A DNA stretch of 64,000 bases from a virus, in IMG/VR virus record IMGVR_UViG_3300013101_002049, positions 32,001-96,000 of that record; one strand, written 5' to 3'. Under the pieces are notes generated by a model. It did no database searches and was not told the DNA's origin. It was given only the letters and a program-made list of their open reading frames with translations. Both the position numbers and the translations under genes were made by a program. This document shows, one piece after another, positions 3-36,063 of this stretch (position 1 is the first letter of the stretch; every line of letters starts with the position of its first letter).

Positions 3-3000
3 TTTGGTCGTAAATTGTCCACTAGATTTGGAACTAAAGGTGTTTCAGTTACTCCTGGTAAAATTCCTACAGATATACAAGAAATTCAAGATGTAGCTAA
101 AGCTATGGCTGGTGGTTTAGTGGCTAAAGTTGAACCTGGCGCAGGGCTTGGTTTTGCTAAAATGCCTAAAAGTGTCGGCGAGATGATATCCGATATGTTA
201 GAAAAGACTTTGTCAGGCGAAGATCTTGGTTGGGCAGATATGTTTAGTCAAGAAATACTTGACGATTTAATAACAAGATTACGTGCATCTGGTAATAAAT
301 TTATAGTAGATTTATTTACTGAAGCTAGTTACGGTATAGTTTCTAAAGAAGAAGCTGAGAAACAAAAGAAATTATTTTCAGAGACAGCTAATGTTTATAG
401 TGAACTTTTTGGTAAGTCTTTAATGGGCGGTGTTAAAGGCATAGAACAAGTTCAAGAGGACTATGTTGATAAATTAGGTCAAGCACCTTTTAAATTACAA
501 CCTATTGAAGCCCGTATCAGTGCTCGTGGTGTAGCTAAACGCGGGTTGATGCCAGAAGTACTTGAAGGTATGGTTAATAATTTAATTGGATCTTTAGAAG
601 AGTCTACAGCTATAAAAGATGTTGATTTAACTGCTGATCCTGGTGTTCGTAAAAAGATGAATGATTATTTACGAGCATTAACTTATTCAGCATTGGATTC
701 GGCAGAGCAAAAAGCTGTAACTAAAAGATTAAGAGCTGAAGGTGCTAGTGAACAAGACATAGAACGTTTAAAAGATTTTGAAAAACAATGGTCTGTGTAT
801 ACTGACATAGTTAATGAGTATGGAAAGACTATGAAGAGTTTTGTTTCTCCAAAGTTTTTGCAAATTGTGGAGGAACCTCATCTATTTAAGGAATGGTCAG
901 AACGTGATATTTCTAAAGGTGTACGTGGGGAAAAATTAAATTTTCAAGCTTTTGCCGCTTATGCTGGTATTTTTGGTGAAGGTTCTAAAATGATGGAGGA
1001 ATTGTCTGGGGCTACATCGTTAGCGTCTCGTGAAGGATGGGAACTAATACGCGCTTTACAAATGTTAGACCCATCTATGAAAGATTTAGCTAAAACTATG
1101 ACCGAAAGTTTGAAAACTGTGAAGTTAAGTGATGTGGATGTTTTCACTGGTCGTACAGCAGAAATTGGAGAACTAGAAGAGACTATTTTTGATGTTGGTA
1201 AATTTCCAGCACCTTTTAAATTAAAAATTCCATCTACTGCTCCGGGTAAATTGGGTGAATTTGAAGATCTTTATGTACCTGGACCTGCCGCACGCGCCAC
1301 TTATGCTGAAGAATTGATGGGAGGACGCGTATCCCCTACGAATATAGCAAGATATTTGAGTAATTTAGTTGAAAGGGCTAAAAACGTTGAAAATTTGATG
1401 GCGCTTTCTAAGGAAGGCGAGTTGGATCTAAACGATGAATCGGCTCGAAAATTCGCTAATACAATAAGAGCAGAGCTTACTGAAAAATTAACTTCTACTT
1501 ATAAAGAATTTGCAGGCATTGAGCAGAAACAAGTTGTTACTCCTGCAAATATTGAATTTATGCAGAGCTATATAGATCAATTGAAAAAATCTCTTTCTCC
1601 AGTACGTCATGTAGCCCCAATATATATGACTGCTGAAGCTAAGCGTGGTAATTTAAGGTCTCAAACGGAATTAGAGTCCGTGGAATCTTACGAGCGCCAG
1701 TTAAGAAAAACAGATCCTGGCAAAATGTATAGTAAACTGCTTAGTCGTATTATGGATATTTTAATTGGAGCTCAGCCAGAATCATTGAAAGCTGAGGAAT
1801 CAAAGATAGAAAGGGCTAGGAAGAAATTTACAGAAACTGGTGATGTTCCTAAAGAATATGCTAAGCAATTTCAAAATTTGGGTAAGTTTTATGAAAATGA
1901 TTTTGATAAAATGTTGGCTGCTTTTCAAAAACGTGTTGAAGAACGACGCGCTGCTAGAGCCGCATTTGATATAGAATTAGAAGCAGGTAATTTAAAAGAA
2001 TTTTCTGAAAACGTCGGTCTTAATTTACATATGACTGTTAAGGAATCTTTAGAAAGAGCTTTGCAGTCGTTAAGTCGTGCACGAGTTTCTTATTATGAAG
2101 AATTAGCTAAACAAGTTATTGGTCCAAAACATGGTATAGAACAAACATTTTTCCAAAGAACTATCCCATTTAGTGTAACGGCTAAAGCGGTAACTGCTGT
2201 TACTGATAAAACCAAAGAGCTCGATAAAGCTATCACCAATTTGTCTAGCAGAAGTGGGTCTAATTTTGATAACATAATCGATAAACTTAAAGAAATAAAA
2301 AAAGAACATGTTGATTATATAGCAAAAGCCAAACAATTGGGTATGCCAGTACTTAAAGAAGGTGAGATTGGTATACATCCTGAGATGGCTGAACAAATTA
2401 AATTAAAGCAAGCGGGCCGAGAAACTGATTTATCTAAATTACTTTCAGAACAATTAGAAGAAGCTTATGTGACTACTGTACGATATCCATTTACAGGAAC
2501 ACTCAGTGTTCAACCTCATAAAGCTAAATTAATGGAAACCGGATTAGCCAGACAGTCATTGGCTGTACCTGGTGCACCAGAAATGAATATAGCTTCTATG
2601 ACAGAAGAAGTTGTTAAGCCGTTAAGAGAACATATCGATAAATTGGTAGCTGAACGGGAACAACTATGGGAGCGTGGTGGTGATGATGCCGCACAAAAAG
2701 CTGCCGAGTTGTCTAAAGAAATAGAGGGTTTAATATCATTAACTAAGGAGTTGACGCCTAAGTTTGTTAATATGGAACAGAAGCTTGACTTTGATGGTGA
2801 TGCATTATTTTTGCATACTGGTCAAGTTGAAGATTCTCGTATGGAGATTAAGAAGCATTTTGAAGCACTAGGTGATGATGTTACATCTGTGAGATCTTTG
2901 TTTAACACATTATTTACTGCCGTAGAAGAAACTAATGTAAAAGCTCTTTCTGAAATGGCTTATATATTCGGTAAGAAGCAGCCAATGGAAAAGGGCTTTA

Positions 3001-3620
3001 AATTTTTGGAAAAGCCTTATATTGAAAAAGAAGTATCTAATCTTGGTTTAGATGAAGTATTTAAATCTTTGTCTACGTATGAATCTAAAAAACCAGAAAC
3101 TGATGTTGATTTTAAAAATTGGGTTTCTAAATATTTAACAGAAAATGTTTTTCCTGAAGTATTTAGAAAAGCCGGTGGTACTGAAGCCGAAAGAGCCGCA
3201 TTTGCCGGAAAAGCTACTGCTGCTTTTGCGGGCGGGGGAGCTGGCATCCCTATGGGGCCTGGTGCTGGTGAGTTTGAAAAAACTGCATCTAAATTATTGG
3301 AAGAATTAATTAGGCGTCGTTTATGGGAACAAAAATATAGTGATGCTATTGTTGGTCAGTTATATAAATTACAAACTGGTCAGACTGTTGAAGGTATTAG
3401 TAGAGTAGCTCGTTTAACTGAGCTTGAAACTGGTTTCGGCGCTGGTTTAGCTGGAACTGGTAAGCGTAAATTTGAACCCGCTACGGAATTTTTAGAAAGA
3501 TGGCCTAAGGAAAGTATAGTATTAGGAAATAGACCTGTTCAAGAATTTGCAGCTCGTATGAATGAAATTTTAAGATTTGTTATTCAAAAAGGTCTTGATG
3601 AAAAACACGCTGGTGTAGAG
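3..3620 (+). other. Single-chain double-psi beta-barrel RNA polymerase region (beta C-terminal part fused to beta'-like part)
   Basis: GRKLSTRFGTKG (6-41) ~ beta GDKMAGRHGNKG with the same K..K spacing. PIEARISARGVAKRGLMPEVLE (501-566) ~ [52 protein letters not shown] (1266-1377) ~ beta' [49 protein letters not shown] ~ [20 protein letters not shown]. VRYP (2478-2489) ~ NRAP. KLDFDGDALFLH (DFDGD 2787-2801) ~ NADFDGDQMAVH. QKGLDEKHAG (3585-3614) is trigger-loop-like. Confidence 0.88.
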
Positions 3621-6600
3621 GCAGTTGGTAAACACATTATAGCTAATGTTGGCAAAAAAGGTGGAGCCGAAGCTATAATGAATATTATGGAGAAAGAGGA
3701 AGATCAGTTTAAGGATTTATGGAAGTTTAATGATCAGATAAAACAAGAAGCTAAACTTAGATTAGGTAAACATCCTACTGAAACTCTTCGTGAAGAATTA
3801 AAGAGATTTCAACCAGATATAGCTGAAGATATGTTAGCTGGGATGTCTCGACAAGAATTAATTGATAGAATTACTAAACAAATAGATTTAAGTGCTGTAT
3901 TTGAAGAACTGTTTAGAATGATTAAGAGACAAGCTATTAAAGGTTACGTTAAAGAATTACGTGGTGGATTAGAAGATCTACCAGTTGAGCAACGAGCTAA
4001 AACTGAAGCGGAAGTAGCTCGTATGGGTGGATTTGAACCTTATGCTCGTAAAAAGATAGAAGAAGAATCTATGGAAGATAGGGGTATTAGCATATTAAAA
4101 TATGTTACTACCAATTTAGAGCCATTATATAAACTACGTACTAGTATGGAAACCATTGGTACTGTAGGTAGTCGTGCTGGTATAAAACCTGATGTTGATA
4201 TTATTTTACCAGAGCAGAAAAGAGAAGCTGAACGACTTAGTGATGTTTATGAGAATACTTTAAAAACCGCTTATGTATTATCTAGGTCTATGAAAGGTAT
4301 TGTTTCTGGGGCTCAAGGTGGCGCCCATTCTATGATGGTATTAAGCTCTGTTCAAAAAAGATTGGAAGAGCTTAGTGCTATAGCTAAGAGGGCGGAAGAC
4401 CTCGGAGTGCCTATGGCAGCAGAAGCCCCAATACCAACAAAACGTATGGAATATGCTGGTGGCGCCTATATGGCAGAGGCTCCTACTCTTTTTGAGGATA
4501 TATGGTCTAAAGCTTTGATGTCTCAAACTAGATTGGGACCAATAGAACAATTAGATCCTTTAGAATCATGGAATAAAAATATAGAACGTTTAAATAAAGT
4601 TAAAAAACAAACTGAGAGTGAGTTAGAAAATTTATCTCAAACTCTTGGTATTCCTATGATTGGTAAGGAAGAAAAGAGTAAAGTTTTCTTTGAATTTGGT
4701 GAAAAAAACGAAGATGTAGTAAAAGCAATAGATCTTAGATCTAAGGCGTTTGGTGAATTTCTTTCAACTAAGCAACCAGAATTAACACCGGAAGAAGTAA
4801 GAAAATCAACAGATGAATATGCTAAATTTATGACTGATTTACTTAAGTTTCAGGTATCAATGTCTGAACAGGCTAGACGTGTATCTGAAGCTATGAAGGC
4901 AGTTCCATTTCAGAAAACCTATCTAGAAAAATCATTCGCTGGCTTGGCTTCTCGAGCCGGAAAATCCCCAACCGAAATAGCAAATGAAATGTCATCTATG
5001 GAAGAGTCATCTTCTAAAGCATTTGATAAAGAGATAGTTGCTAAAAGAGAACGACGTTTGCAAGATATACAAGATTATTTTGCTAAGCAACGAACATCAA
5101 CAGCTCAATCTATGATAGATGTAGCAGCTACTGATCAACCGCAGGTAATACCTGATAGAGATCTTGCTGATAAGGTTAGACAGGCTGCACAGGATTCTAT
5201 ACAACAAATAGCTGAGGTTGTTAATGAAACGGTTGTGTATAAAACTCGTCAGGCTTTGAAAGGTTTGGAGCGTAGAGCTGGCGGTGGTGCTTCGGCTGGT
5301 GGTGAGGAAAAAAGATTAGCTGAATTATATCGTGCTAGTGGTATAGCTGGTGGTGGCGGTTACGGAGGTGTGCCACAACCAGAGGCTATTTTAAGACAAA
5401 TGCTCGGGTTAACTGAACCTAATATGCTTATGGAAGCAACTGCTTTTAGAGGCACTGCTTTACATAGACGTAAGCAATTAGAGATGGGCCGTAAGTATAA
5501 ACAATTTGGTGGTTTTGAGTTAGAAGGTTTGACCAGATATATTGAAGAGGGCCAAGATTTAATGACTGGGCATTTTGATGTAATTTATAAAGAATCTGAA
5601 GATGCTCAGAGAAAATTGGCCGATATTAAAACTATTTATAGTGGTAGAACATTTAAAGCATTGGAAACTTTAGCTAATAATATTAGTAAAGGCGGTATAA
5701 CTTTAGATTCAGCGTTAAAGAAATTTGAAGAAAGTCAATCGGCTTTTGACAAAGAGTTAGCTAGAAGATTGAATAGTTATATTAGTCAAATTAATTTTTA
5801 TTTAGAATCTAATAAAGACGCTATTGGAGAAATTATTGTAGTTAGTGCGGAAGATCCTACTAAGGAAGCTAAAATCGAAATTGGTGGATTTGATCCAGCA
5901 TTATTTGCTAAGGATATTCAAGTAGTAAAAGATGCGAAAATGAAAGTAGCTGAATTATTAGAGGCATTATCTAAAACAGATGATCCTGAAACAATAAAAT
6001 CTTTATTTAGTGATTATAGAGGTGTCTATGAAGCTTTAGTTGATAAGTTAGGTGAAGTTACATTTGAAACCGTATCAGCCGCATTGCCCACCAGACCTAC
6101 TTTTGAAGTACTTGAACAGTCACGTTTAAAAAGTTGGGAAGAATTTGCTTCCACTTTGAATAAGGAAGATCAAGATTTATTTGAAAAGCTAAGCGCTGAA
6201 TATTTAACAGCGTTTGAAAGAATGCGTGGTCCTCGTGCTGAGAAAGTATTTAAGAAATGGCGTATGGAAGGTGTTCCAGCTGGTGGTGCGGGAGCTCCAC
6301 CTGCGGGGGGAGCTCCTCCTGGTGGTGCTGGAGGCGGCGACGGTTTTGATGATGATGAGTTTAGTGAGTTTAATAAAAAAATACAAGCCATTTTAAATAA
6401 GTTGCGTCAGGGTATTGAAATTGATCCAAGCGAAATACTTAAATTAATGGAATTGTATGAACAGGCTCGTAGAAAGTTTAACGAATTGATGGGTAGTAGA
6501 GATCCAAAATTATTTAAGGATATGACTGCTAAATATCAAAAATTAATCGAGGAAATTAAACAAACAGTATCTACAGAATATAAAGGTGGATTTGAATCAG

Positions 6601-9600
6601 CTTATAGAATGTATAATATGCGAGAAAAAGTTGATTCTAATATGGCTGATAATCTTAAAAAGATGGAGAAAGATTATAGTCGATTCAGAACTTTAGATAT
6701 TGAAACTGAAGCACCAGATAGACCGGAAGCAATGCATAAGAATTTAAAGGCTTTATTTGAAGTGGCTCGTCGAAGACATGGTCTTGTTGGATCTGATACT
6801 AAAAAGTTTGGTGCTGATATTGAAAGCTTGATTAAATCAGTGACAGAAGAAGGACCTGGTTTAGATATTTCACGTCAAATAATAGCTGCAGTAGATAAAC
6901 TTCCTAAAGAAAAACGTGGATACACAGTAAGTATATGGAAACATTATAGGAAGGCTGTAAGTGAATACTTTTTGAAAGAATTAGATAGATTACAAGAAGA
7001 AATTGAAAGTGCTCGAACTGAAGATGAGGCTCGTGAATCTTATGCTCAATATGAAAAAACACTTCGTCATTTTAGAGAAACTATAGTTAAAAATTTGGGT
7101 AAAGTTAGTGATATATATACTGAAAAAGCATTTGGTGGAACTCGTGAATTTGTAGATCCTGGGTTGGCTAAATTAACTGGTACTTTTAGAACTAAGGATG
7201 AAATCTCTGAAATTGCTCGAGCAAGTTCGAGATTATCAGGTGAGTTTCAACCTATAGTTGATATGCTTATAGGTGAAGGTTCTGGGGAAGATATCGAAGC
7301 ATTAGTGCCGCCTATTGAAAAAGTGCGACGTGCATTCGAAATGTTGACTTCTGATGCAGAGGAATTTAAAAAGACGTTAACTGATGAAGATGCTTTTAGA
7401 AGATTTGGTGATCAAATAGCTAAACAGTGGGATTTTACTAAAACTGTTAAAGGTGTTACTCAGTTAAGAGCCGCTTTAGAATCCTGGAATAGAATGCAAG
7501 TAGCAGGTATTGGTGATGTTGGTCCGAGTGCTTCTTATACCGAAGCTCAACGTAAAAATATTGAAGAGACTATTAAATTATTGAGACAGTTGGAGAAATC
7601 ATTTGTACCAACTGGTGGGACGGCTGCGTCCGAAATGGGTTTGGTAGGAGTACCCGGATTTTTGTCTACTTCCGAACAAGAGGCTTTACATAAAAGAAAT
7701 ATAGCAATGACTCGTAAGTATTTTGCTACTCCTGAAGAGGAAGGCGGACCAGAGAGAGGCCGTGCATTTACTTATAGATATAAAATAGTAGATCCTTCCA
7801 CAAAGCAAATAGTTCGTAATGTAGCGGAAGAGTTTAGAGGTCTTGGTGATACTGTTGATAGTACTGGTAGAAAGATGGGTGTATTTAGACAGAGAACTGA
7901 AGACCTATTAAAACAATTCCAGGAAAGACGTGGATTTGGTCAGGCATTCGGTCGTGTTATTAGATGGGGTTTGGCAAGTAATGTGGTTTATGGGTCTGTT
8001 AAAGCTCTTAAAGGTATGGTTAATGTTATAAGTGATGTAGAATATGGTATCGCTGTTTTACGTCAAGTTATGAGCCCTCTTGAAAGTGATTTTGAAGGTA
8101 TTACTATGGCAGCAGTGGATTTTGCTAAAGAGTTTGGATTGCCTATTAGAAATGTTATAGATTCTATGAGGGTGTTTGCTCAGCAAGGTTTGGCACAAGC
8201 AGATGTTATTGATAGGACTAGAACGTCTACTTTAGCTGCGAACGTTACCACATTAAATGCGGCAGATGCTACAGAAGCTTTGACAGCTGCAACAAAAGTT
8301 TATGGTTTACAAGGTCAGAGTACTCTTAGATTTTTAGATTCATGGAGTCAAGTAGAAGCTCGACACGCTATTACATCTGCTGATTTAGCGAATGCGTTGA
8401 AAAAGGCTGCGGCAGCTGCTAAAACATCTGGTGTGGATTTTGATCAGTTGAATGCAATTGTTACTGGTATCGGCGAAACTTCACGTCAAACTGGTAAGGA
8501 AATTGGTACTTCATTGAGATTTATGTTTAGAAGGCTACAAGGTGAAAAAGGTCCTAAAGAACTTGGTAAAATAGGTGTTCCGGTTCTTACACCTCAAGGT
8601 GATATTAGATCTGGGTTTGAAGTACTTGGGCAGTTAGCTGATAAATGGGGTGATTTAAATCAAGCTCAGAGATTAGCTATAGCTCAAGCTATTGGTGGTC
8701 GTCGTCATTATAATAGTTTAATTATTTTAATGGACCATTGGGGTGATGTATTAGATACATTACAAGATAGTATAAACTCAAAGGGCGCTGCTGAACGACG
8801 AAATGCTATCGTAATGGATACATATGCAAAGAAGCTCGAACAGGTAAGAGCATCTCTTACTGAATTACAAATTCAATTTGGTAAATTCGCATTACCTATA
8901 GCTAAAGGTGCATTAACTGGACTTAAATTACTTATTGAAACTATTTCAAATATACCTACATCTATTAAAGTAGCTTTTGCTGCTGTAGCTTCGTTCTTTA
9001 CTTTATTAACAAAAGGTGGTAGTTTGTTTGATAAAGTTGCTATGAGTTTTACTAGTTCTGGTAATATATTTGGAGATTTTATTAAGACTGCAAAATCTGA
9101 ATTAAGTAAAGGTGTGTATGAGATTTTTGGAGAAGGTATTGGTGGATTTAGTTTAGATAATGTATTTAAAGATATAAATACCGAAGGTTTGAAACAGTTT
9201 ACTGAAGCTACTAAGATGGGAGATCTTGAGTCGGGATTAGGTAAATCTGTATATGTACTTGCCAAAGTAGGTAGATCTTGGAATAATTTTTTAACTGATA
9301 TAACTAAAGGTAGTGCGTCCGCTACTAATAAAATAGCACATATGTTTGATTTTATAGGTGATAAGTTAATAATGGGAGGTGCGGCGTTAGGTGAAAAAGG
9401 TGGACCTGCGGGTATAATTACTGGAGCTTTAACAGCTGCTTTGGGATCTGTATCTGAAATGGCTGGTTATGGTACTGAGAAAGTAGCCAAGATGTTGGGA
9501 TTGACCGCTGAGCAAATGGCCAGATTGACTAGATCAAGCACTGGAGTTGTTGGCGCATTAGCACCTATGATAGGTTCATTTTTCGCTTTAAAACCTTTAT

Positions 9601-12600
9601 TGTCTGCTGCATGGGATAATTTTAAGAAATTAGCTTTATCAGCCAGTGATTATGAAAAATCTATGAGTGGTTTACGTATGCTTCATAGTGGTGAGTTAGA
9701 ACGTATAAAAGACCTTGGTTATGAATATGATAAGTTATCTAAACGAATGTCAGATATAAGCATTTCTATGCGACCAGATGTAAAAGCTCGTCAGCAAGAA
9801 AGAGAAGAATACAAAAGTCCGCTGCATGAATTAGGTAAGTTGTATGGTGAGGCTACTGATTATGGTAACAAATTAGCAGAAACTAATATTGATTTAGTTA
9901 GTGGATTTGATAAATTTGGTAATGCAATTTTAAAAACCACTGATAACATGAAAGGCTATTTGGAGGTATTAGAATCTGCACAGCAACGTAAAATGGCTGA
10001 AACTGAATTGGGTGTGTTAGGTGTTTATGTAAAAGATTTAACCAAAACTACTGGTTTGGAGTCATTTAAAAACGAGTTTAAAAAGTTTTTAGCTGAAATT
10101 CCAGTGATAGGTGAATCGTTAGCTAAAGCTATAAAAGTATCTCCTGCTAAATCTATAGAAGAATTAAGAGAAAAAGTAGAAGATTTAATAGCGTTAAGAA
10201 ATAAATATCCTTTGACTACTTCATTTGATATTGATTTAAATAAATATAATCAACAATTAGCTGAAGTTAGAAAGTCTTATAAACAGACTTATAATGATTT
10301 TTTAAGAACATTAAGTAATATTCCTGTCGAAGGTTTAAATCCAGCTCAAGTGTCTGAGATGTTTAGTAGACCTGAATTTAAGGAAGGTTTTGAAGTAATA
10401 GCCAATATAGAGCCAAGATTACAAACTGGTGCTTTAAGAGGTAAAGTAAATTGGCAAGATGTTCTTGGTACAGAGGTTCTTAAAAAGTTGTATCCGAGTA
10501 AGCCGTTAGATTTTACAGCACAGTTAACTAAAGGTTTGCTAGAACAAGCTAATATTAGTCCTAGAGACGCAGAAGCTTTTTCTGGTGATATTGTATTGTT
10601 TACGGATGAAATTGCTAAGAAATATGAAATGGCTGGTAACCAAGCCATTTTGAAAATGCAGGAAACTAGTGAAGGTATTGTTAAATGGACAGTACAATTT
10701 TTTGATAAAGAATTATCTACTATTAAAGAATTGCCATTTGATAAGGTATCCAAATTTGTAGATTCTATATTTCCAGTACAAGCAATATCTGATAGATTAT
10801 ATGAAAATATTGAAGTATTAAAAGAATTTGTAGCGGGTGCGGGTGCTGGTCTTCGTGGTATTACTGAAAAAACTTTTAAAAAAGATTTTAGTTTAGGAGA
10901 AAGATTTTTTAGCCAGTTACCTACAACTACGTTGCTACAAACTACTAAGGGGTATGAACCTGGGCGTGGTTTTGGTGAAGTGCCTTTTAAGTCAGGATGG
11001 GATAAATGGATAGATGATAATTTTTTCAAACCTATGACTGAATATACACGGCTGTTGGAACAATTAAAACCAGCTGATTTACCAACTGGTGAATCTGAAT
11101 TAGCACCAGGTCTTACAGAAGATATTGCTTCTCTTCAAGATATATTGAAAAATAATCAAGTTGTGCTACAATATAGAGCTGTTCATGAAGATTTAATAAA
11201 ATCCATATCTGAAGGTAGTCGAGTTTTAAAAGAAAATATTGCTGCTGAACGTAATAGAAATGAATATATTGTACAAAGTAGTGGTTATTTGAAGGGCCTT
11301 GCCGAAGATATGGCTGATGTTAATTTAGGGGTTAAAAAATATACTGATCTTACATTACAACAAAGACTAGCTTTGGCTGAAGTTGGTAGAAATATGCAGC
11401 CATTTACAACAGCACGTCAACAATATAGGGAAGGTACGGTAGAAAGACAATCGATAGTAGATTCTATAACTAATATAGATAAATCATTGATAGCTGTACG
11501 TGAAATAGGTGATGTAGCTAGAAGTTTTGGGGCTGCTTTACCTACTCAAGATCTTGCAAACTATATAGAAGAAATTGCTAAAACTGGTGATCGTGGTACT
11601 GGATTACTTCTTGGTGAAACAAAGAAAGTGGAAAGTAATACAGCTGCTACGGTAGAAAGATTAGACCAGATATTGGAACAAGGTGGTGACTCAGCTGCTA
11701 TTGAGCGGATTGTTGAACGTACCAGTGGTCGTCGTAATATTATAGATAAGTTGGAATACTTAACAGAAAGACGTAATAAAGCAGCTAAAAAAGATAACAC
11801 AGAATTAGTAACGACTTATGATAGAGCCATTGATAAACTTACCTCTAAACTTGTTAGTGAAGTTGGGCCAGAAAAAGCTCTCAAATATGTTGGCAAAAAC
11901 GCTCCAATGTTTTTTGGTAAGCAAGATTATACTCAGGCTGAGTTTATAAAAAGAGCACTTGGAAATACTAATTTTGAAGGATTTAGTAAAGCTTTAGAAA
12001 GAGTTCAGCCAGGTATAACTAAAACCAAAGAATTCACAGATCTTGTTGCACTACAACAAGAGCAGTCTACAGAACAGGTGGTAAGTAATAAAAATCTTCA
12101 GAAATTATTAGCTATATACAGTACTATAGAACATTTTAATAAGGTTTCAACTAATAGACAAATAAAAGCTTTAGATTCTCAATTAGGCGAACTTGAAGTT
12201 CAAAGAAAAGAATTACAAAAAGCTGGTACACCTACAGAAGATATAACAAATAAAATAGCTGAACTTACTACACAGCGCGGAGAACTTGCAACAAGAGCTT
12301 CTGGACAAGCTATGCGTGAGGTTATAGCTCCAATAGCACTAGCTTCGCAAGAAATAGCTAAATCGTTTGGTGTTACAGATAGACAGTTGCGTATACTTGG
12401 CGGAACTATTGGTGGTACTTATCTTGCTTGGAAAGCTTGGAATAAATTAACTGGAGAACCAATTCCAGAATATATAGAAGAACTCGGCGCTAAGTCAGCA
12501 GAAGCAGCGCAACGTATGTCTCAAGAAGGTATTTCTGGTAAGGCGTGGAGAACATATTATGCTGCTAAAGATGTTGTGTTTGGTAAAAATCTTGATGAAA

Positions 12601-15600: not shown

Positions 15601-18600
15601 GTAATGATGATTTGATTGATAAAAAACAATCTGGTGGGTTTATTACTGGTCCTGGAGGTCCGCGAGAGGATCGTGTATTAACTAGAGTAAGTCCTGGTGA
15701 ATATGTTATAAAAGCAAGTTCGGCAAAAAATATAGCTAATAAGTATGGAGCTGGTGTATTACATTCTATGAATAATACAGGTGAGATGCCTAAAGTTGCT
15801 AAAGGAGGATTAATACCTAGATTTCAAGACGGTGGTCGTCCTGATGAATTTATAAAAGCTTCTAGCACAGATGAAGTACCTGAAGGTATGGTTTATGATT
15901 ATGATTTAGGTGGTTTTAGAAAGAAAGTAACTATAGAGGATGTGGAAAGAACTCATTCTGAGGTCAAAGGCATGCTAAAAAGTATGGAAGCCTTTGATAG
16001 ATATTCACAAATGAAGGCAGAACAAGAAACCGAGGAATATATGGATCAGCTAGATGAAAAGATGAAGCAAAAATATTCCATTAGCGGTGTATTTAGGTCT
16101 TTAGGAGACAAACTAAGTGCTGCTCGTAAAAAAAATCAAGGGTTAGGATTTGATTTTTCTAAAGATAAAGGAACTGTTGGTAATATTGCTGAAGCTGTGG
16201 AAGGAGTAACCAGCACAGGTAAAGTGTTTTCTTTGGGAGTATTGGAATCTGTACCTAGATTATTCCAATGGGTTGCTCAGATTGGTGAGGGGATGTTTGG
16301 ATTAGGTAAAACAGCCATTACTAAAGGTACTAAAGCCGAAACTTATACAAAGGGTTTTAAAAATATAATTGATTTTTATACTAAGAAAGATGTATTGAAA
16401 GAAACAGGGTCTATACTTAAAGATACTGGTATCGGTTTAACTAAAGGTATAGGTGATATGTTTGTAAGACTAGGCGAAGGTGATATGACAGCCGCTTATG
16501 ATGTAGCTTCTTTGGTTGCTCCTATTAAAAGTGGAGCTGCTTTAAAATCAGGCAAGTTTTTTAAAGCAGGAAAACTTGCGCCTTCTAAGTATTACAAAGA
16601 GCTATTATCGAATAGAAGTACTGATACAATTGCTAAAAGTTATCGTAAATTGTTTCCTAATAAAAAGGTTTTTGAAGATACTATGGAAGCTTATTATAAA
16701 AAAGTTTATTCTGAAACGATGGATCCAAGTAAAATAGACGCGTCTATTCGTTTGATAAATGAAATTAGGAAAGGTGCTATAATTGAGCCGTCTTTAGGTG
16801 AAAAAGTAATGGGGGCAGGAATTGGAGTTAAAACTAAGGCTAGTGAAATTTTTAGTGGTATTAAATCTAAATCTAAAGATGCTTGGAGTTTTGGTAATAA
16901 AAATATTGATGAAGCAATACGCATTATGAGTGATAAGTCTAAGAAATATAGAAAGGGGTTTAGTGAAAAATATAAACAAGCTGGTGGTATATCTGGTATA
17001 GCTGATAAAGCGGCTAGTAATTTGAATAAATTTGATGATTGGGTGGATGAGCTTGTGAAATCAGCTGGCCCAAAAGTTTCTAGTATGGCAAATACTGCTA
17101 AAGAATATACTAAAACTGGTATTGGAAAAGCTAAAACTGCTGCATTTGGAGTAACTAAGAAAGCTGCTAAATATACGGCTTTAAAAGGACTGGATCTGTT
17201 AACACCAAGGTCACTTAAATGGTTGTATAATTTTATAAAAGAAAGACCAGAGATTTTTTCTGATATGGCAAAGAAAGGAAAGTCTTTTTATGAGTCATTT
17301 GCTAAAAAATTTAGCGGCAGCGAAAGTGCTGATTGGGGTAAAAAAGCTAGTGGTTTTTGGAACCGTTGGGATGCTGGAGAATATAGTAAAAAGTCTGGTA
17401 ATTATAGATGGAGATCAGGTTCTAGTGAAAAAGCAGAATCAGGTAGTTATAGAAATAGAAGAGATTTTTGGGAAGAGGGTTTAAAAAATGAGGATCCTGA
17501 AGCTTATAGAAAGTATCAACAGTATAAAGAAACCGCAAAGGAAAATATGCGTCGTCGCGCTGAGGAACAAGCGGCATATAAGAGTAGTCGAAAGTCAGCA
17601 AAAGATATTAGAGATGAATTACTACGGGCTAAAGCTAAATATGGGTCTCAATCAAAAGAATATCAAGATTTATTTAATGATTTTTTAAATAAATATGTTC
17701 GTGGAAAAGGTGGGTCAGTTGATAGTGGTATAAATAAGTTTTCATTGAGTGTTGCTCATCCAGAAGGTTTTGGAGAAGGCGGTTTAATAAAATCGCTTTG
17801 GAAAGCTATATTTGGTCAGGCTAAAAAAGAAGATAAAACAATTACTTCGGTATTTCAAGCATCCGATGTGATTAATAAGCGTAAAAAATCTCAAGCTGAA
17901 CAGATAAAAGCTATTTTTGGTGAAAAAAAATCTGGTGGGTTAATAGGTTTTAAAGATGGTGGTGGTGTATTATCTACTAAGGCTTACCAAGATGTACATA
18001 AGTATTTTGTAGATGAAGAAGCCGAGACGCCCGAATGGAATAAGGAAATAGCTGGGTATCTTAGAACAAGAATAAGTAAAATAGAAGATTTAGACGCTTA
18101 TTATTTATCTGAAGATTTAAAAAAGATTGAAGAAGGAGATAAAAAAAGTTGGAAGGAATTTTATAATAAGATATTAGATTATGAAGATATTGCTGATAAA
18201 GTTTTTGAGTCTATTCCAGCCCCTATTATTCCGAAAAAAGAATCTGGTACTGGTGGTTATAATTTAAAGAAAGGAATGAAGGCTGCTAGTGGTAGAACTC
18301 GTGCTGCGCAATTAAAAGAAATTATGGATGCTACGAAAGCACAGGGTGGTTTGTTAAAGGGGTATGCTAAAGGCGGCGGTACTGATAGTATGCTAGCGGC
18401 TTTAAGTCCTGGTGAATTTGTATTAAATAAAGAGGCTACTGATAAAATAAGTAGTAAATATGGGCTAAAATCACTTGAATTTATGAATAAAGAAGGTGAA
18501 CTGCCTGGGTTTGCTTTAGGCGGTATTGTAGCTAAGCGGAGTTATGCGGATGGTGGTCCAGTTTATGATAGTAAAGCTATAACTAATGTATCTGTAGATA

Positions 18601-19202
18601 CTTTAAATACACAGCAGTTGGGTGAAGAGATAGGGGATAGTATTGCTAGAAAACTTGAATCTGTTACATTTAAACCAGTCGAGCTTGCTGAAGATTCTAT
18701 TGAAATTTCCTCAGATTCTATTAAAGGTATATCAGATGCCATTGAGAGTGTAAATAGGGGTGTAACGGCTGTAGGAGCTGAGGAGGCCACTACAAAGATT
18801 GACGAATTTATCGACGCTGCTAACTCTAGATTAGAAACATTTTCTGTAAAAATAGATGAGCAAAGTGAATCGATTGAGATACTACATACAAGTATTGAAG
18901 AAGCTACTGATAGAATTAATGATATAGATGTTACTTCTATAAATATGAAGTTGGGTGAGTTAGAACTAAGTGTTTCCGAATTAGTTACTAAAGATGAATT
19001 AAATGTTTCAGGTAGTGATCTTGATTCGAATATAGATTATAAAATACATGAAGCTATTAATTTTATAGAAGAGAGATATATATCTGGAGTTAAAACAGAT
19101 ATAAATATCATTAATGGTAAAATAAGTGATTTACAATATGACCTGGATGATACAAAAGATCACCTTAATGGTGAAGTAAGTAGATTGGGATGGGGGATTT
19201 AA
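3..19202 (+). CDS. Giant fusion protein (5'-truncated): two-barrel RNA polymerase + PD-(D/E)XK nuclease + phage tail tape measure protein
   Basis: The frame is open from position 3 (FGRKLSTRFGTKGV), so the TTG at 15 is not the real start. It contains RNAP motifs (3-3620), nuclease motifs (5430-5810), a TP901-type tape-measure core (7935-8900) and tape-measure C-terminal GG motifs. It lies directly upstream of hub/baseplate-like genes. Confidence 0.9.
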   Translation, partial: FGRKLSTRFGTKGVSVTPGKIPTDIQEIQDVAKAMAGGLVAKVEPGAGLGFAKMPKSVGEMISDMLEKTLSGEDLGWADMFSQEILDDLITRLRASGNKFIVDLFTEASYGIVSKEEAEKQKKLFSETANVYSELFGKSLMGGVKGIEQVQEDYVDKLGQAPFKLQPIEARISARGVAKRGLMPEVLEGMVNNLIGSLEESTAIKDVDLTADPGVRKKMNDYLRALTYSALDSAEQKAVTKRLRAEGASEQDIERLKDFEKQWSVYTDIVNEYGKTMKSFVSPKFLQIVEEPHLFKEWSERDISKGVRGEKLNFQAFAAYAGIFGEGSKMMEELSGATSLASREGWELIRALQMLDPSMKDLAKTMTESLKTVKLSDVDVFTGRTAEIGELEETIFDVGKFPAPFKLKIPSTAPGKLGEFEDLYVPGPAARATYAEELMGGRVSPTNIARYLSNLVERAKNVENLMALSKEGELDLNDESARKFANTIRAELTEKLTSTYKEFAGIEQKQVVTPANIEFMQSYIDQLKKSLSPVRHVAPIYMTAEAKRGNLRSQTELESVESYERQLRKTDPGKMYSKLLSRIMDILIGAQPESLKAEESKIERARKKFTETGDVPKEYAKQFQNLGKFYENDFDKMLAAFQKRVEERRAARAAFDIELEAGNLKEFSENVGLNLHMTVKESLERALQSLSRARVSYYEELAKQVIGPKHGIEQTFFQRTIPFSVTAKAVTAVTDKTKELDKAITNLSSRSGSNFDNIIDKLKEIKKEHVDYIAKAKQLGMPVLKEGEIGIHPEMAEQIKLKQAGRETDLSKLLSEQLEEAYVTTVRYPFTGTLSVQPHKAKLMETGLARQSLAVPGAPEMNIASMTEEVVKPLREHIDKLVAEREQLWERGGDDAAQKAAELSKEIEGLISLTKELTPKFVNMEQKLDFDGDALFLHTGQVEDSRMEIKKHFEALGDDVTSVRSLFNTLFTAVEETNVKALSEMAYIFGKKQPMEKGFKFLEKPYIEKEVSNLGLDEVFKSLSTYESKKPETDVDFKNWVSKYLTENVFPEVFRKAGGTEAERAAFAGKATAAFAGGGAGIPMGPGAGEFEKTASKLLEELIRRRLWEQKYSDAIVGQLYKLQTGQTVEGISRVARLTELETGFGAGLAGTGKRKFEPATEFLERWPKESIVLGNRPVQEFAARMNEILRFVIQKGLDEKHAGVEAVGKHIIANVGKKGGAEAIMNIMEKEEDQFKDLWKFNDQIKQEAKLRLGKHPTETLREELKRFQPDIAEDMLAGMSRQELIDRITKQIDLSAVFEELFRMIKRQAIKGYVKELRGGLEDLPVEQRAKTEAEVARMGGFEPYARKKIEEESMEDRGISILKYVTTNLEPLYKLRTSMETIGTVGSRAGIKPDVDIILPEQKREAERLSDVYENTLKTAYVLSRSMKGIVSGAQGGAHSMMVLSSVQKRLEELSAIAKRAEDLGVPMAAEAPIPTKRMEYAGGAYMAEAPTLFEDIWSKALMSQTRLGPIEQLDPLESWNKNIERLNKVKKQTESELENLSQTLGIPMIGKEEKSKVFFEFGEKNEDVVKAIDLRSKAFGEFLSTKQPELTPEEVRKSTDEYAKFMTDLLKFQVSMSEQARRVSEAMKAVPFQKTYLEKSFAGLASRAGKSPTEIANEMSSMEESSSKAFDKEIVAKRERRLQDIQDYFAKQRTSTAQSMIDVAATDQPQVIPDRDLADKVRQAAQDSIQQIAEVVNETVVYKTRQALKGLERRAGGGASAGGEEKRLAELYRASGIAGGGGYGGVPQPEAILRQMLGLTEPNMLMEATAFRGTALHRRKQLEMGRKYKQFGGFELEGLTRYIEEGQDLMTGHFDVIYKESEDAQRKLADIKTIYSGRTFKALETLANNISKGGITLDSALKKFEESQSAFDKELARRLNSYISQINFYLESNKDAIGEIIVVSAEDPTKEAKIEIGGFDPALFAKDIQVVKDAKMKVAELLEALSKTDDPETIKSLFSDYRGVYEALVDKLGEVTFETVSAALPTRPTFEVLEQSRLKSWEEFASTLNKEDQDLFEKLSAEYLTAFERMRGPRAEKVFKKWRMEGVPAGGAGAPPAGGAPPGGAGGGDGFDDDEFSEFNKKIQAILNKLRQGIEIDPSEILKLMELYEQARRKFNELMGSRDPKLFKDMTAKYQKLIEEIKQTVSTEYKGGFESAYRMYNMREKVDSNMADNLKKMEKDYSRFRTLDIETEAPDRPEAMHKNLKALFEVARRRHGLVGSDTKKFGADIESLIKSVTEEGPGLDISRQIIAAVDKLPKEKRGYTVSIWKHYRKAVSEYFLKELDRLQEEIESARTEDEARESYAQYEKTLRHFRETIVKNLGKVSDIYTEKAFGGTREFVDPGLAKLTGTFRTKDEISEIARASSRLSGEFQPIVDMLIGEGSGEDIEALVPPIEKVRRAFEMLTSDAEEFKKTLTDEDAFRRFGDQIAKQWDFTKTVKGVTQLRAALESWNRMQVAGIGDVGPSASYTEAQRKNIEETIKLLRQLEKSFVPTGGTAASEMGLVGVPGFLSTSEQEALHKRNIAMTRKYFATPEEEGGPERGRAFTYRYKIVDPSTKQIVRNVAEEFRGLGDTVDSTGRKMGVFRQRTEDLLKQFQERRGFGQAFGRVIRWGLASNVVYGSVKALKGMVNVISDVEYGIAVLRQVMSPLESDFEGITMAAVDFAKEFGLPIRNVIDSMRVFAQQGLAQADVIDRTRTSTLAANVTTLNAADATEALTAATKVYGLQGQSTLRFLDSWSQVEARHAITSADLANALKKAAAAAKTSGVDFDQLNAIVTGIGETSRQTGKEIGTSLRFMFRRLQGEKGPKELGKIGVPVLTPQGDIRSGFEVLGQLADKWGDLNQAQRLAIAQAIGGRRHYNSLIILMDHWGDVLDTLQDSINSKGAAERRNAIVMDTYAKKLEQVRASLTELQIQFGKFALPIAKGALTGLKLLIETISNIPTSIKVAFAAVASFFTLLTKGGSLFDKVAMSFTSSGNIFGDFIKTAKSELSKGVYEIFGEGIGGFSLDNVFKDINTEGLKQFTEATKMGDLESGLGKSVYVLAKVGRSWNNFLTDITKGSASATNKIAHMFDFIGDKLIMGGAALGEKGGPAGIITGALTAALGSVSEMAGYGTEKVAKMLGLTAEQMARLTRSSTGVVGALAPMIGSFFALKPLLSAAWDNFKKLALSASDYEKSMSGLRMLHSGELERIKDLGYEYDKLSKRMSDISISMRPDVKARQQEREEYKSPLHELGKLYGEATDYGNKLAETNIDLVSGFDKFGNAILKTTDNMKGYLEVLESAQQRKMAETELGVLGVYVKDLTKTTGLESFKNEFKKFLAEIPVIGESLAKAIKVSPAKSIEELREKVEDLIALRNKYPLTTSFDIDLNKYNQQLAEVRKSYKQTYNDFLRTLSNIPVEGLNPAQVSEMFSRPEFKEGFEVIANIEPRLQTGALRGKVNWQDVLGTEVLKKLYPSKPLDFTAQLTKGLLEQANISPRDAEAFSGDIVLFTDEIAKKYEMAGNQAILKMQETSEGIVKWTVQFFDKELSTIKELPFDKVSKFVDSIFPVQAISDRLYENIEVLKEFVAGAGAGLRGITEKTFKKDFSLGERFFSQLPTTTLLQTTKGYEPGRGFGEVPFKSGWDKWIDDNFFKPMTEYTRLLEQLKPADLPTGESELAPGLTEDIASLQDILKNNQVVLQYRAVHEDLIKSISEGSRVLKENIAAERNRNEYIVQSSGYLKGLAEDMADVNLGVKKYTDLTLQQRLALAEVGRNMQPFTTARQQYREGTVERQSIVDSITNIDKSLIAVREIGDVARSFGAALPTQDLANYIEEIAKTGDRGTGLLLGETKKVESNTAATVERLDQILEQGGDSAAIERIVERTSGRRNIIDKLEYLTERRNKAAKKDNTELVTTYDRAIDKLTSKLVSEVGPEKALKYVGKNAPMFFGKQDYTQAEFIKRALGNTNFEGFSKALERVQPGITKTKEFTDLVALQQEQSTEQVVSNKNLQKLLAIYSTIEHFNKVSTNRQIKALDSQLGELEVQRKELQKAGTPTEDITNKIAELTTQRGELATRASGQAMREVIAPIALASQEIAKSFGVTDRQLRILGGTIGGTYLAWKAWNKLTGEPIPEYIEELGAKSAEAAQRMSQEGISGKAWRTYYAAKDVVFGKNLDEKLKEAEKKIKEEKVLTEEETKRATEKVMYAGKGKEAPLLLESGMTDKKKPTDVLKDMLKDFKNDFKQSGETIIQGAEKAEDSVVTGAEGFMSRLKKAIPDKEKFGELKEAMKDVFKKYYGKGTATGAGILGSAGIYSEEKAAEQRETSAKIMSELRRLMRKYGIKPEEDTVIFGGERAEESEVRRAGKAESLGQAVRRAVEYTKAKDKARPAEDKILDENSAQTGILHGIYEQTKRTAENTNTFSENLSDELKAGREDRRDEVDNILTNVDKLRGEYLERAGTRVSPLKQIVAALLAATSAGYVSEKSEQRRRNNELENRAEKQVELVDNIIEKYPDVISKAIGDFNTTIVNAGEGLSVETEKVQKAVDTEASEKTMVSRLEDLRNRMTEAYESVNESMEEAAQRMSELELAEEMKKQLEDLDNAIKSSTAIQNLEKKFSVETSGVLAGKRAPQFQLGTQSMLDLSPAESLTFKEDYSRPIMGSIKRTMNNFTGAIGSVWEKAMGSIGNAISTVTLHIFDDTYSDLAEQYEQGTSELSHLMEVASSITTEMTALRAAPMTDESKARYEALEDNLGEITDRMGDLNESLIKTSVSLQSVIAAEEFRIRTLKTEVEASAKFSQAYVGTMIPTDPFSYLGKQGLGAGGFDLQLAKTSDELTNSERLLLEARKSNNTDLIDSIHKYTALTSVLDGQKQQAAETAGKISKLIIEYREQSKVLGINHDKVKLIKNSLDSQIKSYMTLKDSMDKHIESLKELDAVQSGLNFSRLINELQGLKKSYLETSRANEFKRITEGVDKILGGSHPLAKVAPSYAALQAGVPEDQLLNMNKYQLRMAELVAQPGPGPTLEQVNAIRFGKTVDVWAYEQAKQNDELRRQREQAIQYNNAFSRAIKTAEATGTEQDVAKLRELQGAFIKEAKTMYEVKEVDESGVRYYKGIDFDKYIRASEGLFKDLGLGDMESNVTMPIVTSIDNNTKRIIAALQGKDLYKDTERGFFSKLFGFGNDDLIDKKQSGGFITGPGGPREDRVLTRVSPGEYVIKASSAKNIANKYGAGVLHSMNNTGEMPKVAKGGLIPRFQDGGRPDEFIKASSTDEVPEGMVYDYDLGGFRKKVTIEDVERTHSEVKGMLKSMEAFDRYSQMKAEQETEEYMDQLDEKMKQKYSISGVFRSLGDKLSAARKKNQGLGFDFSKDKGTVGNIAEAVEGVTSTGKVFSLGVLESVPRLFQWVAQIGEGMFGLGKTAITKGTKAETYTKGFKNIIDFYTKKDVLKETGSILKDTGIGLTKGIGDMFVRLGEGDMTAAYDVASLVAPIKSGAALKSGKFFKAGKLAPSKYYKELLSNRSTDTIAKSYRKLFPNKKVFEDTMEAYYKKVYSETMDPSKIDASIRLINEIRKGAIIEPSLGEKVMGAGIGVKTKASEIFSGIKSKSKDAWSFGNKNIDEAIRIMSDKSKKYRKGFSEKYKQAGGISGIADKAASNLNKFDDWVDELVKSAGPKVSSMANTAKEYTKTGIGKAKTAAFGVTKKAAKYTALKGLDLLTPRSLKWLYNFIKERPEIFSDMAKKGKSFYESFAKKFSGSESADWGKKASGFWNRWDAGEYSKKSGNYRWRSGSSEKAESGSYRNRRDFWEEGLKNEDPEAYRKYQQYKETAKENMRRRAEEQAAYKSSRKSAKDIRDELLRAKAKYGSQSKEYQDLFNDFLNKYVRGKGGSVDSGINKFSLSVAHPEGFGEGGLIKSLWKAIFGQAKKEDKTITSVFQASDVINKRKKSQAEQIKAIFGEKKSGGLIGFKDGGGVLSTKAYQDVHKYFVDEEAETPEWNKEIAGYLRTRISKIEDLDAYYLSEDLKKIEEGDKKSWKEFYNKILDYEDIADKVFESIPAPIIPKKESGTGGYNLKKGMKAASGRTRAAQLKEIMDATKAQGGLLKGYAKGGGTDSMLAALSPGEFVLNKEATDKISSKYGLKSLEFMNKEGELPGFALGGIVAKRSYADGGPVYDSKAITNVSVDTLNTQQLGEEIGDSIARKLESVTFKPVELAEDSIEISSDSIKGISDAIESVNRGVTAVGAEEATTKIDEFIDAANSRLETFSVKIDEQSESIEILHTSIEEATDRINDIDVTSINMKLGELELSVSELVTKDELNVSGSDLDSNIDYKIHEAINFIEERYISGVKTDINIINGKISDLQYDLDDTKDHLNGEVSRLGWGI
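5310..5940 (+). other. PD-(D/E)XK (RecB/Cas4-like) nuclease domain within the giant ORF
   Basis: Ordered RecB-family motifs: RGTALH, E(GL), GHFDVI, LADIKT and SQINFYLE (QxxxY). No Cys, so no Fe-S cluster. Confidence 0.75.
7935..8900 (+). other. TP901-family tape measure core domain
   Basis: AVDFAKEFGLPIRNVIDSMRVFAQQG...LAANVTTLNAADATEALTAA...FLDSWSQVEARHAITSADLANALKKAAAAAKTSGVDFDQLNAIVTGIGETSRQTGKEIGTSLRFMFRRL is the typical pattern of this domain. Confidence 0.9.
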
Positions 19203-21344: not shown

Positions 21345-21360
21345 ATAGGAGTTATTTTGT

Positions 21361-21987
21361 ATGGCTACAATAGAAAGAGAGGCTATAAGGGCTTCTATTA
21401 CATTGGGAGATATTGAAATAAGCACACCAGATGTGATTTCTTTTAATGTTAGAAAGTCTCGTGGTCAAAAAGCGGCTACTTTTTCAGCTAGTGTTAAAAT
21501 GGACGCCGCTGCTATGAGTAATGGTGGTTTGTCTTTAATATCTAAAGGTGTTGTTATAGAAGCAGGTGTTAAAGGATCGGAAAGGACTATTTTTACTGGT
21601 GTAGTTCAAAAAGTTACAGTTAATCCAATTAGAACAGACGCTTTAAAGGTTATGGTAAGTTTAGCCGGTAAAGATAATATGAGTGTAATGGAAGGACAAA
21701 AGATAAATAGAAGAGTTAAGACTTATAGAGATGGCGACACACCGCCAGAACGTTGGGGAGTAGTAACTGCTATCGAGGAAGATAATACACCAGTTAAGAC
21801 TGGTTTCGGATTTAAGAGATTTTCTAAGAAAAAAACAGCAGTATTTAATATTGGTAAATTAGCTGTAACTTTTACTCAAGGTGCGTATGTTGATCAAGAA
21901 TTAATTAGAGAATCTTTTGGTGTACCTGTTGGAAATATATTGGTTGAAAAATTAGAAGTAGAAGATTCAACTACTGATGAAGATTAG
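21361..21987 (+). CDS. Baseplate hub-like protein
   Basis: Pattern VISFNVRKSRGQKAATFSASV...VVIEAG....TIFTGVVQKV....VSLAGKD, typical of phage hub (gpD/gp44-like) N-termini. AGGAG SD upstream. Confidence 0.55.
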   Translation: MATIEREAIRASITLGDIEISTPDVISFNVRKSRGQKAATFSASVKMDAAAMSNGGLSLISKGVVIEAGVKGSERTIFTGVVQKVTVNPIRTDALKVMVSLAGKDNMSVMEGQKINRRVKTYRDGDTPPERWGVVTAIEEDNTPVKTGFGFKRFSKKKTAVFNIGKLAVTFTQGAYVDQELIRESFGVPVGNILVEKLEVEDSTTDED

Positions 21988-35962: not shown

Positions 35963-36063
35963 AGTAAAATTAAATAGTTATACAGATATAGCATATTGTT
36001 ATTTATTCCATTTTTATTCTAGCAAAATCCATAAAATATCCTATAATATATATAGGAGGCTTT

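Follow-up and report, generated by a model that had tools for sequence, protein, structure and literature searches.

A giant phage tail tape measure protein with a probable single-chain RNA polymerase among its enzyme cargo

Here, we describe a giant gene of a virus represented by the IMG/VR record IMGVR_UViG_3300013101_002049. The stretch of DNA analysed, called the window below, comprises 64,000 nucleotides (nt), bases 32001-96000 of this 150,128-bp record, which is estimated to be ~57% complete. The gene product is a tail tape measure protein of 7,531 amino acids (aa), in which the first 3,500 residues, at the N-terminus, serve as enzyme cargo. Within this cargo, a beta-like and a beta'-like module probably make up a single-chain, cell-type two-barrel RNA polymerase (RNAP) of ~2,100 aa. 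The explanation that we favor, and hold to be probable, is that the tape measure protein is injected with its enzymes, and that the polymerase among them transcribes the first genes. The parts follow one another in the order DEDDh exonuclease, beta-like module, beta'-like module, candidate PD-(D/E)xK nuclease, TP901-type tape measure core and long C-terminal ruler.

Reading frame and conserved polymerase motifs

A first-pass annotation, made from the letters of the window, had reported one uninterrupted frame at 3-19202 holding RNAP motifs. This frame is open, and the motifs listed there all lie where they had been placed. It is, however, incomplete. The 5' part is cut off by the window edge, and the gene begins with a TTG codon 3,394 nt upstream of the window (genome 28607), with an AGGGGG ribosome-binding site. 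This upstream portion encodes the N-terminal DEDDh exonuclease and most of the beta-like module. The entry for the full product in our protein collection (P0002) has the identical length. Residue numbers below refer to the full-length protein (window aa + 1132) unless window aa are specified. The polymerase-like part of the window holds the following features:

3..19202, plus strand: tape measure polyprotein, window part (aa 1133-7531 of 7,531 aa)
6..44, plus strand: beta-type signature GRKLSTRFGTKGV of the second double-psi beta-barrel (DPBB-B), aa 1134-1146, with two catalytic-type lysines (K1136/K1144; window K4/K12)
513..581, plus strand: conserved block RISARGVAKRGLMPEVLEGMVNN (including GVAKRG), close to where the beta-like module ends; invariant residues R, S, G, KRG, E, E and N
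927..944, plus strand: GEKLNF
1074..3932, plus strand: beta'-like module with clamp-like region, DPBB-A and bridge-helix/trigger-loop-like region (window aa ~358-1310)
2094..2165, plus strand: switch-2-like motif IGPKHGIEQTFFQR / YEELAKQVIGPKHGIEQTFFQRTI, paired by hhalign with E. coli beta' 324-347
2169..2852, plus strand: DPBB-A (window aa ~723-950), holding PVLKEGEIGIHPEMA, RYPFTGTLS and LDFDGDALFLH
2346..2390, plus strand: conserved motif LKEGEIGIHPEMA, in the DPBB-A range
2481..2507, plus strand: RYPFTGTLS, in DPBB-A
2784..2816, plus strand: metal-binding LDFDGDALFLH (DFDGD at nt 2787-2801)
3360..3614, plus strand: K..TG...E...R...E...G...G block and NE..RF...QKGLDEKHAG block (QKGLDEKH at nt 3585-3614)

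Conservation was assessed in an alignment of 66 homologs of at least 6,500 aa. Across 42-66 homologs, at identities as low as 26%, the RNAP motifs show little or no variation, and their retention over this range argues that they are not chance matches. The invariant residues, by position in the full-length protein, are:

aa 1006-1025: T..FEDQ....G.LA...T
aa 1134-1146: GRK..TR.G.KGV
aa 1303-1325: R.S..G..KRG...E..E....N
aa 1839-1854: G.........F.R..P
aa 1912-1920: G.P.L...E
aa 1959-1967: R.PFTG..S
aa 2058-2070: QKLD.DGD....H

Among these are D2061, D2063, G2064, D2065 and H2070 of the DFDGD motif and G1839, F1849, R1851 and P1854 of the switch-2-like motif. TFEDQ and GRKxxTRxGxKGV are also invariant in a focused set of 20 sequences; the first of these lies upstream of the window, as part of the partner motif TFEDQIVISG (aa 1009-1018).

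Could the region be an inactive relic, retained as bulk, plug or spacer? Its high divergence, the absence of a significant Pfam match and the poor model of its second barrel would all fit such a view. However, the three Asp, the His that follows them, both Lys, the ED pair and R.P..G..S are invariant down to 26% identity. Moreover, few parts of the protein are as well conserved as the RNAP blocks, which in this respect lie far above the C-terminal ruler. A relic is thus quite improbable, and we consider with considerable confidence that the RNAP-like module is catalytically competent.

When profiles of the family are compared with E. coli RpoB and RpoC by hhalign, the five best local matches fall on catalytic signatures:

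E. coli beta 811-822: NFEDSILVSERV (NFEDS)
E. coli beta 1063-1075: GDKMAGRHGNKGV (GDKxxxRHGxKGV)
E. coli beta' 324-347: switch 2
E. coli beta' 359-373: PYLRLHQCGLPKKMA (P.L...CG.P..MA)
E. coli beta' 460-479: DFDGDQMAVH...

These matches occur in the same order in both, in agreement with the succession of beta and then beta' motifs proposed at first pass. Singly, they are not significant (E 0.009-0.5), and the two that pair the DPBB-B signatures with beta 811-822 and 1063-1075 are of motif level only (E 0.09-0.2). The case made by hhalign rests instead on the position of the matches on catalytic signatures and on their shared order. The RISARGVAKRGLMPEVLEGMVNN block would correspond to the C-terminal region of beta. 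Taking motifs and fold models together, we regard the region as a homolog of RNAP with high confidence.

The protein contains no cysteine in 7,531 aa, as against 1.36% in the other open reading frames (ORFs) of the genome (~100 expected), and the median count among the 66 homologs is likewise 0. This rules out the zinc sites of cellular beta', and it fits a protein that crosses the tail and the cell envelope before folding.

Fold models of the two modules

The beta'-like module spans aa ~1490-2510. It was modelled with AlphaFold (AF2) as window aa 151-1350, from an alignment of 32 sequences, with a mean predicted local distance difference test (pLDDT) score of 76. The model was compared with 48,161 PDB representatives by VIA-align. 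Largest subunits of RNAP come out on top (Z 9.4-11.4 over 240-413 residues, model residues 208-1160):

human Pol I A190 (7ob9_A): Z 11.4 over 378 aa
plant NRPD1 (7eu0_A): Z 11.3
Drosophila Rpb1 (9mu7_A): Z 11.0
vaccinia and archaeal A': Z 10.5 (2pmz_A, Z 10.5)
M. tuberculosis beta' (6edt_D): Z 9.4 over 413 aa

The top 50 Foldseek matches of the same model are almost all beta'/Rpb1-type chains. Isolated DPBBs superpose on model residues 573-800; the designed barrel 7dww_A does so with Z 9.7 and a root-mean-square deviation of 2.3 A over 84 aa, and others include designed 7dvc_A, a VCP-like ATPase domain (7dbo_B), VAT-N (1cz5_A) and the CDC48 N domain. The model therefore gives good support to a double-psi beta-barrel around DFDGD, set inside a beta'/Rpb1-like scaffold, and so to one barrel of the pair that had been put forward for checking. 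In line with this, PF00623 scores below threshold at DFDGD in the window's genome (11 bits, cut-off 25.3) and likewise in 6 of 10 relatives.

Two further parts of the module can be assigned tentatively. An isolated archaeal clamp domain (3qqc_A) matches model residues 189-567 with Z 8.8, a value below 13 for a largely helical part. Together with the beta' alignments, which start at the subunit N-terminus, it suggests a clamp-like region in the model. Behind DPBB-A, the alignments to beta' continue as far as model residue ~1160. They take in the two blocks with invariant residues K2254...G2280 and N2319...G2336, which are candidates for the bridge helix and the trigger loop.

The identity of the beta-like module (aa ~440-1480) is weaker than that of the beta' part. 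Its model covers aa 330-1500 (22 sequences, pLDDT 69), with good confidence at aa ~449-929; each of the two barrels thus belongs to a model of its own. In the VIA-align ranking, second-largest subunits of RNAP occupy places 1, 2, 3, 5, 8, 17, 22 and 29, represented by plastid beta, Xanthomonas beta, AR9 beta-N, a Thermus beta1 domain, vaccinia Rpo132, M. tuberculosis beta B1/B2, NRPD2 and RPB2 of African swine fever virus (ASFV). Their N-terminal lobes align in order with aa 438-944 (Z 4.8-6.5). It is the recurrence of one family among the matches, rather than any single Z value, that makes the case for beta lobes. ESM Atlas was uninformative for the DPBB region of beta.

Nucleases, tape measure core and relatives

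The polymerase-like region is flanked by a nuclease on one side and a candidate nuclease on the other. At aa ~115-320 lies a DEDDh 3'-5' exonuclease, matched by PF00929 (30.9 bits, cut-off 24) and by phrog_192, 'DNA polymerase exonuclease subunit' (4e-14). The other, together with the linkers around it, lies in the window:

5277..5303, plus strand: Gly-rich linker AGGGASAGG
5349..5936, plus strand: candidate PD-(D/E)xK (RecB/Cas4-like) nuclease with GTALH, GHFD, DIK and SQINFY (about aa 2950-3070)
6276..6338, plus strand: Gly/Pro/Ala-rich linker of 21 aa

The motifs of this candidate (G, E, G..D, D.K, SQ...Y) are invariant in an alignment of four sequences and ~80% conserved in the 66 homologs; the region has no sequence match in Pfam or the PDB. 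The nuclease added to the polymerase at first pass is thus a candidate, proposed from its conserved motifs. No metallopeptidase or processing peptidase was found. As to role, one may speculate that both nucleases probably work on the ends of nucleic acids during entry.

The company of nucleases raises the possibility that the two-barrel module serves DNA synthesis or repair, for example as a primase- or PolD-like enzyme or in end processing, where it would join the flanking exonuclease and nuclease in converting or protecting the ends of the incoming genome. The exonuclease is of the proofreading type of DNA polymerases, the candidate nuclease follows the polymerase, a distant relative (L030, below) has LigD_N and RNase H domains at the same position in the gene, and PolD likewise has two DPBBs (PMC10770324). 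Against this, each of the best structural matches is either an RNAP largest subunit or QDE-1, with no PolD chain in the top 50, and the motifs fit RNAP-specific signatures (NADFDGD-type, switch 2, GDKxxxRHGxKG-type). A role in DNA metabolism is therefore unlikely, and RNA synthesis remains our preferred assignment for the module.

The remainder of the protein is that of a tape measure:

8118..8699, plus strand: TP901-type tape measure core (PF10145, PhageMin_Tail; window aa 2706-2899)
8952..9605, plus strand: two hydrophobic segments behind the core (aa 4116-4135 and 4314-4333, from a Kyte-Doolittle scan)
15621..18620, plus strand: C-terminal ruler part with matches to phrog_3547, phrog_25241 and phrog_6090

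PF10145 is covered over profile positions 6-201, in two halves across a query cut point (24.7 + 44.3 bits), and scores 96.3 bits in the homolog P0098. Matches to phrog_4211 (4e-32 and 4e-36) and to other tape-measure PHROGs concur, so that the TP901 core recognized at first pass is borne out. In the conservation profile of the 66 homologs, this core (aa ~3600-4100) is the best conserved block of the family. It is followed by ~3,400 more ruler residues, in which the motif GG..G.GG......LSPGE[YF]V occurs twice, ~900 aa apart (nt 15690-15716 and 18405-18431), both copies matching the same tape-measure PHROGs. In all, a ruler part of ~3,900 aa would imply a very long tail, of roughly 0.6-0.8 um.

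All genes are on the plus strand, with GC (~34%) and GC skew even, including across the giant gene. A major head protein (phrog_2522) is encoded 24 kb upstream, and the gene order upstream of the giant gene is kept in the relatives L007-L009 and L030. A 1,812-aa ORF of the head-tail region (genome 14911-20349) has the phage tail repeat PF12789 as its sole match. The genes directly flanking the giant gene have no Pfam or PHROG match. Those downstream had been called hub genes, a name that rests on position: the 712-aa ORF there yields a weak base-plate lead in ESM Atlas and nothing more.

A HMMER scan of 1.84 billion representatives recovered 101 clusters at 50% identity, in which nearly all full-length members measure 6.8-8.0 thousand aa. 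PF10145 is present in 42/42 close and distant homologs, and PF00929 in many. The sources name the homologs 'TP901 family phage tail tape measure protein', just as the first-pass annotation had foreseen, and one truncated copy 'DNA polymerase III epsilon subunit-like'. No match was obtained by tblastn against 50,697 deposited phage records, and a related-locus search seeded with the single protein found nothing. No second RNAP of the same family lies within the 150-kb record, which at ~57% completeness does not exclude one.

Is the fusion real? It could be an artefact, either a chimeric assembly or several genes read as one, and in three relatives (L007, L008 and L030, the last with at least 7 ORFs) the gene is indeed broken, while in a fourth (L009) it ends at 4,004 aa. 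On the other hand, RNAP and TP901-type core share one polypeptide, in the same uninterrupted order, in at least 66 homologs of 6.5-8.0 thousand aa from JGI, ENA, NCBI and Logan assemblies. L007 and L008 are broken at differing sites, in an indel-like manner, and base composition is even across the present gene. Since the fusion is kept in so many independent metagenomic homologs, an artefact is highly improbable; the fusion proposed at first pass stands, and the chimeric assembly considered as its refutation is not borne out.

The broken copies are of some interest in themselves. In L007 (JGI 3300033141; 18560-18680) and L008 (JGI 3300042089; 20560-21500), the break in the giant gene falls immediately ahead of the tape-measure core, near aa 3505-3570; L008 has a second break. 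We considered whether cargo and ruler are divided by a conserved split or a programmed frameshift, and rejected this, as the two break sites differ and one is a ~32-nt deletion. The breaks are probably assembly indels or decay. In the distant relative L030 (ENA ERZ25039603; 4729-21477), the gene is spread over at least 7 overlapping ORFs, in which the beta'-like part is followed by LigD_N (3'-phosphoesterase) and RNase H/RVT_3 domains. This implies that the enzyme cargo varies within the family. The shortened homolog of L009 (21919-32015) adjoins DEAD-helicase and DpdG genes on the opposite strand, from a Dpd-type DNA modification cluster; the junction may be a misjoin or an insertion.

Two observations touch on host and transcription. 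Among 185,579 GTDB species genomes, the sole match is a 16-kb contig (L010, CAZRJS010000021.1) in a Candidatus Woesearchaeota metagenome-assembled genome. An archaeal host was considered and set aside: the contig is more likely a mis-binned phage contig, and in the phage, ribosome-binding sites are of the AGGAGG type and promoters of the TATAAT type. Separately, a promoter-like motif, TTTTTnTCTAGCAAAAT-N10-11-TATTCTATAATAtA, occurs in seven copies, mostly in the few intergenic gaps (window 36010-36056, that is genome 68010-68056; genome 96509, ~123440, 133674, 140973, 141612 and 148820). Its geometry is sigma-70-like (TAGCAA, 16 nt, TATAAT) but with far more positions conserved. It could mark a temporal class of genes read by host RNAP plus a phage factor, or by the phage polymerase.

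Delivery of the cargo and comparison with known systems

How might such a cargo work? By analogy with gp96 of Thermus phage P23-45, and from what is generally known of tape measure proteins, the protein would occupy the lumen of a very long tail, where it is probably trimeric. At infection it would be expelled before the DNA, with the N-terminal cargo last out, beside the leading DNA end, and the cargo would then fold or refold in the cytoplasm. There, the polymerase would transcribe the first-entering genes without host RNAP, and it may help to pull the DNA in. If the tape measure is trimeric, three polymerases would be delivered. The phage probably injects its own transcription enzyme, and it seems reasonably likely that this polymerase, delivered through the tail, carries out the first transcription.

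It is also possible that the polymerase is active and injected, yet serves chiefly a mechanical purpose, hauling a long genome through a long tail by transcribing it. T7 RNAP and the N4 RNAPs pull the genome in by transcription during entry. A record of 150 kb at ~57% completeness implies a genome of well over 200 kb, and the length of the ruler points to a very long tail, as this idea would have it. Coupling of translocation and transcription has been proposed before, in the discussion of Chaban et al. 2024 (PMC10770324). Nothing separates a mechanical role from early transcription, and the two are compatible; no promoter was identified at a genome end, in a record without genome ends. We give a chiefly mechanical function a small chance, and continue to favor early transcription of the first genes.

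Several points weigh against the explanation we favor. For the RNAP region, Pfam, PHROG, PDB phmmer (single-sequence) and profile searches gave no significant RNAP match; in the PDB profile searches, a broad family profile returned coiled-coil noise only, and focused beta profiles found no RNAP. A six-frame search of the window's genome with PF00562 gave no match. Foldseek searches of the PDB and BFVD with the beta' and beta models gave no match at E <= 1e-3 (E 0.02 or worse), and the Z of 5-6.5 for the beta lobes is within the range reachable by unrelated folds. In the DPBB-B region (aa ~1000-1160), pLDDT is below 50, so that the models give no view of a two-barrel active site. In its folded state, a polymerase of ~235 kDa that carries a clamp-like domain cannot go through a tail tube. 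One homolog, P0067 (7,100 aa, JGI), begins at the beta'-like module, its aa 88-1211 aligning with aa 1386-2519 of the present protein; there, the beta-like part may be missing, or a separate gene upstream may encode it. Finally, the explanation draws on metagenomic sequences, models and analogy, for a family with no cultured member.

If a clamp-bearing, single-chain polymerase was indeed fused to this tape measure independently of the Thermus phages, an enzyme cargo of ~400 kDa, free of cysteine, must be kept inside a tail tube, travel through it as a thread and fold in the host. Delivery of transcription through the tail would in that case be a general strategy and not an oddity of Thermus phages. 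The question of how so large, clamp-bearing an enzyme is stored and passes the tail becomes sharper, and a natural single-chain, zinc-free, cysteine-free cellular RNAP core would become available for structural and evolutionary study. As read from sequence, the standard label 'tape measure protein' would conceal a transcription enzyme and two nucleases, one of them a candidate.

Among known systems, the closest in concept is gp96 of phage P23-45 (Oshimavirus), the precedent named at first pass. The first ~1,100 of its 5,002 aa are an active two-barrel RNAP, flat and without clamp; gp96 is found in virions and transcribes pre-early genes, and it has been proposed to pass the tail because it is flat and clamp-free (Chaban et al. 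2024, PMC10770324). The two proteins have in common a two-barrel RNAP (a probable one in the present case) with DFDGD, N-terminal to the ruler of a giant tape measure polypeptide (here also in the 66 homologs), a complete lack of cysteine (0 in 5,002 aa and 0 in 7,531 aa) and a very long tape measure that implies a very long tail. In P0067, DFDGD falls at residue 765, near its position in gp96 (779).

The precedent holds for the fusion concept, but not for the layout. The RNAP of gp96 starts at residue 1, whereas here ~440 aa, including the exonuclease, precede the polymerase and a second, candidate nuclease lies behind it. The polymerase itself measures ~2,100 aa as against ~1,100, and it has beta-lobe-like and clamp-like parts where gp96 is flat and clampless. 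Structurally, gp96 is a weak match (8h2m_A, Z 7.7 over 114 aa, compared with Z 11 over 350-380 aa for cellular subunits). GC is 34% here, and nothing points to a thermophilic host. Neither RNAP nor ruler showed detectable similarity to gp96 in sequence (hhalign probability 2.8%; blastp and hidden Markov model searches along 5,002 aa), which places the present family in a separate lineage, in keeping with the first-pass suggestion of a distinct one. The balance of evidence tips slightly toward a widespread lineage of long-tailed jumbo phages having fused a full-size, cell-type and clamp-bearing single-chain beta-beta' RNAP, with two nucleases flanking it, independently of the Thermus phages.

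Compared with cellular RNAP (RpoB/RpoC, Rpb2/Rpb1), the likeness lies in the best structural matches of both modules and in the order of signature motifs, with beta before beta' as in the bacterial rpoBC operon. The differences are that the present polymerase is one chain, is cysteine-free and so without Zn sites, sits inside a virion structural protein, and stays under every Pfam RNAP threshold. In addition, TFEDQ and the first lysine are 125 aa apart, versus 252 aa in E. coli. Gp66 of phi14:2, a crAss-like phage, (two-barrel) and the N4 virion RNAP (T7-like) resemble the present case as injected polymerases within very large virion proteins, acting in early transcription (PMC10770324). Neither is a tape measure protein, both belong to short-tailed phages, and the fold of the N4 enzyme is unrelated; gp66 was not among the top VIA-align matches of the beta' model. 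The polyvalent proteins of Iyer et al. 2017 (PMC5512222) are likewise giant multi-enzyme polypeptides with variable cargo and predicted delivery with the DNA, in an account that mentions neither tape measure proteins nor two-barrel RNAPs. Papers citing PMC10770324 and surveys of polyvalent proteins and jumbo phages describe no such family.

A virion RNAP fused to a tape measure has so far been published for one small group of Thermus phages only. Here, the same solution appears in a family of ~100 clusters at 50% identity, with a polymerase twice the size of that of gp96 and much closer in layout to cellular beta/beta'. The concept is known from P23-45; what is new is its occurrence in an unrelated and much larger lineage.

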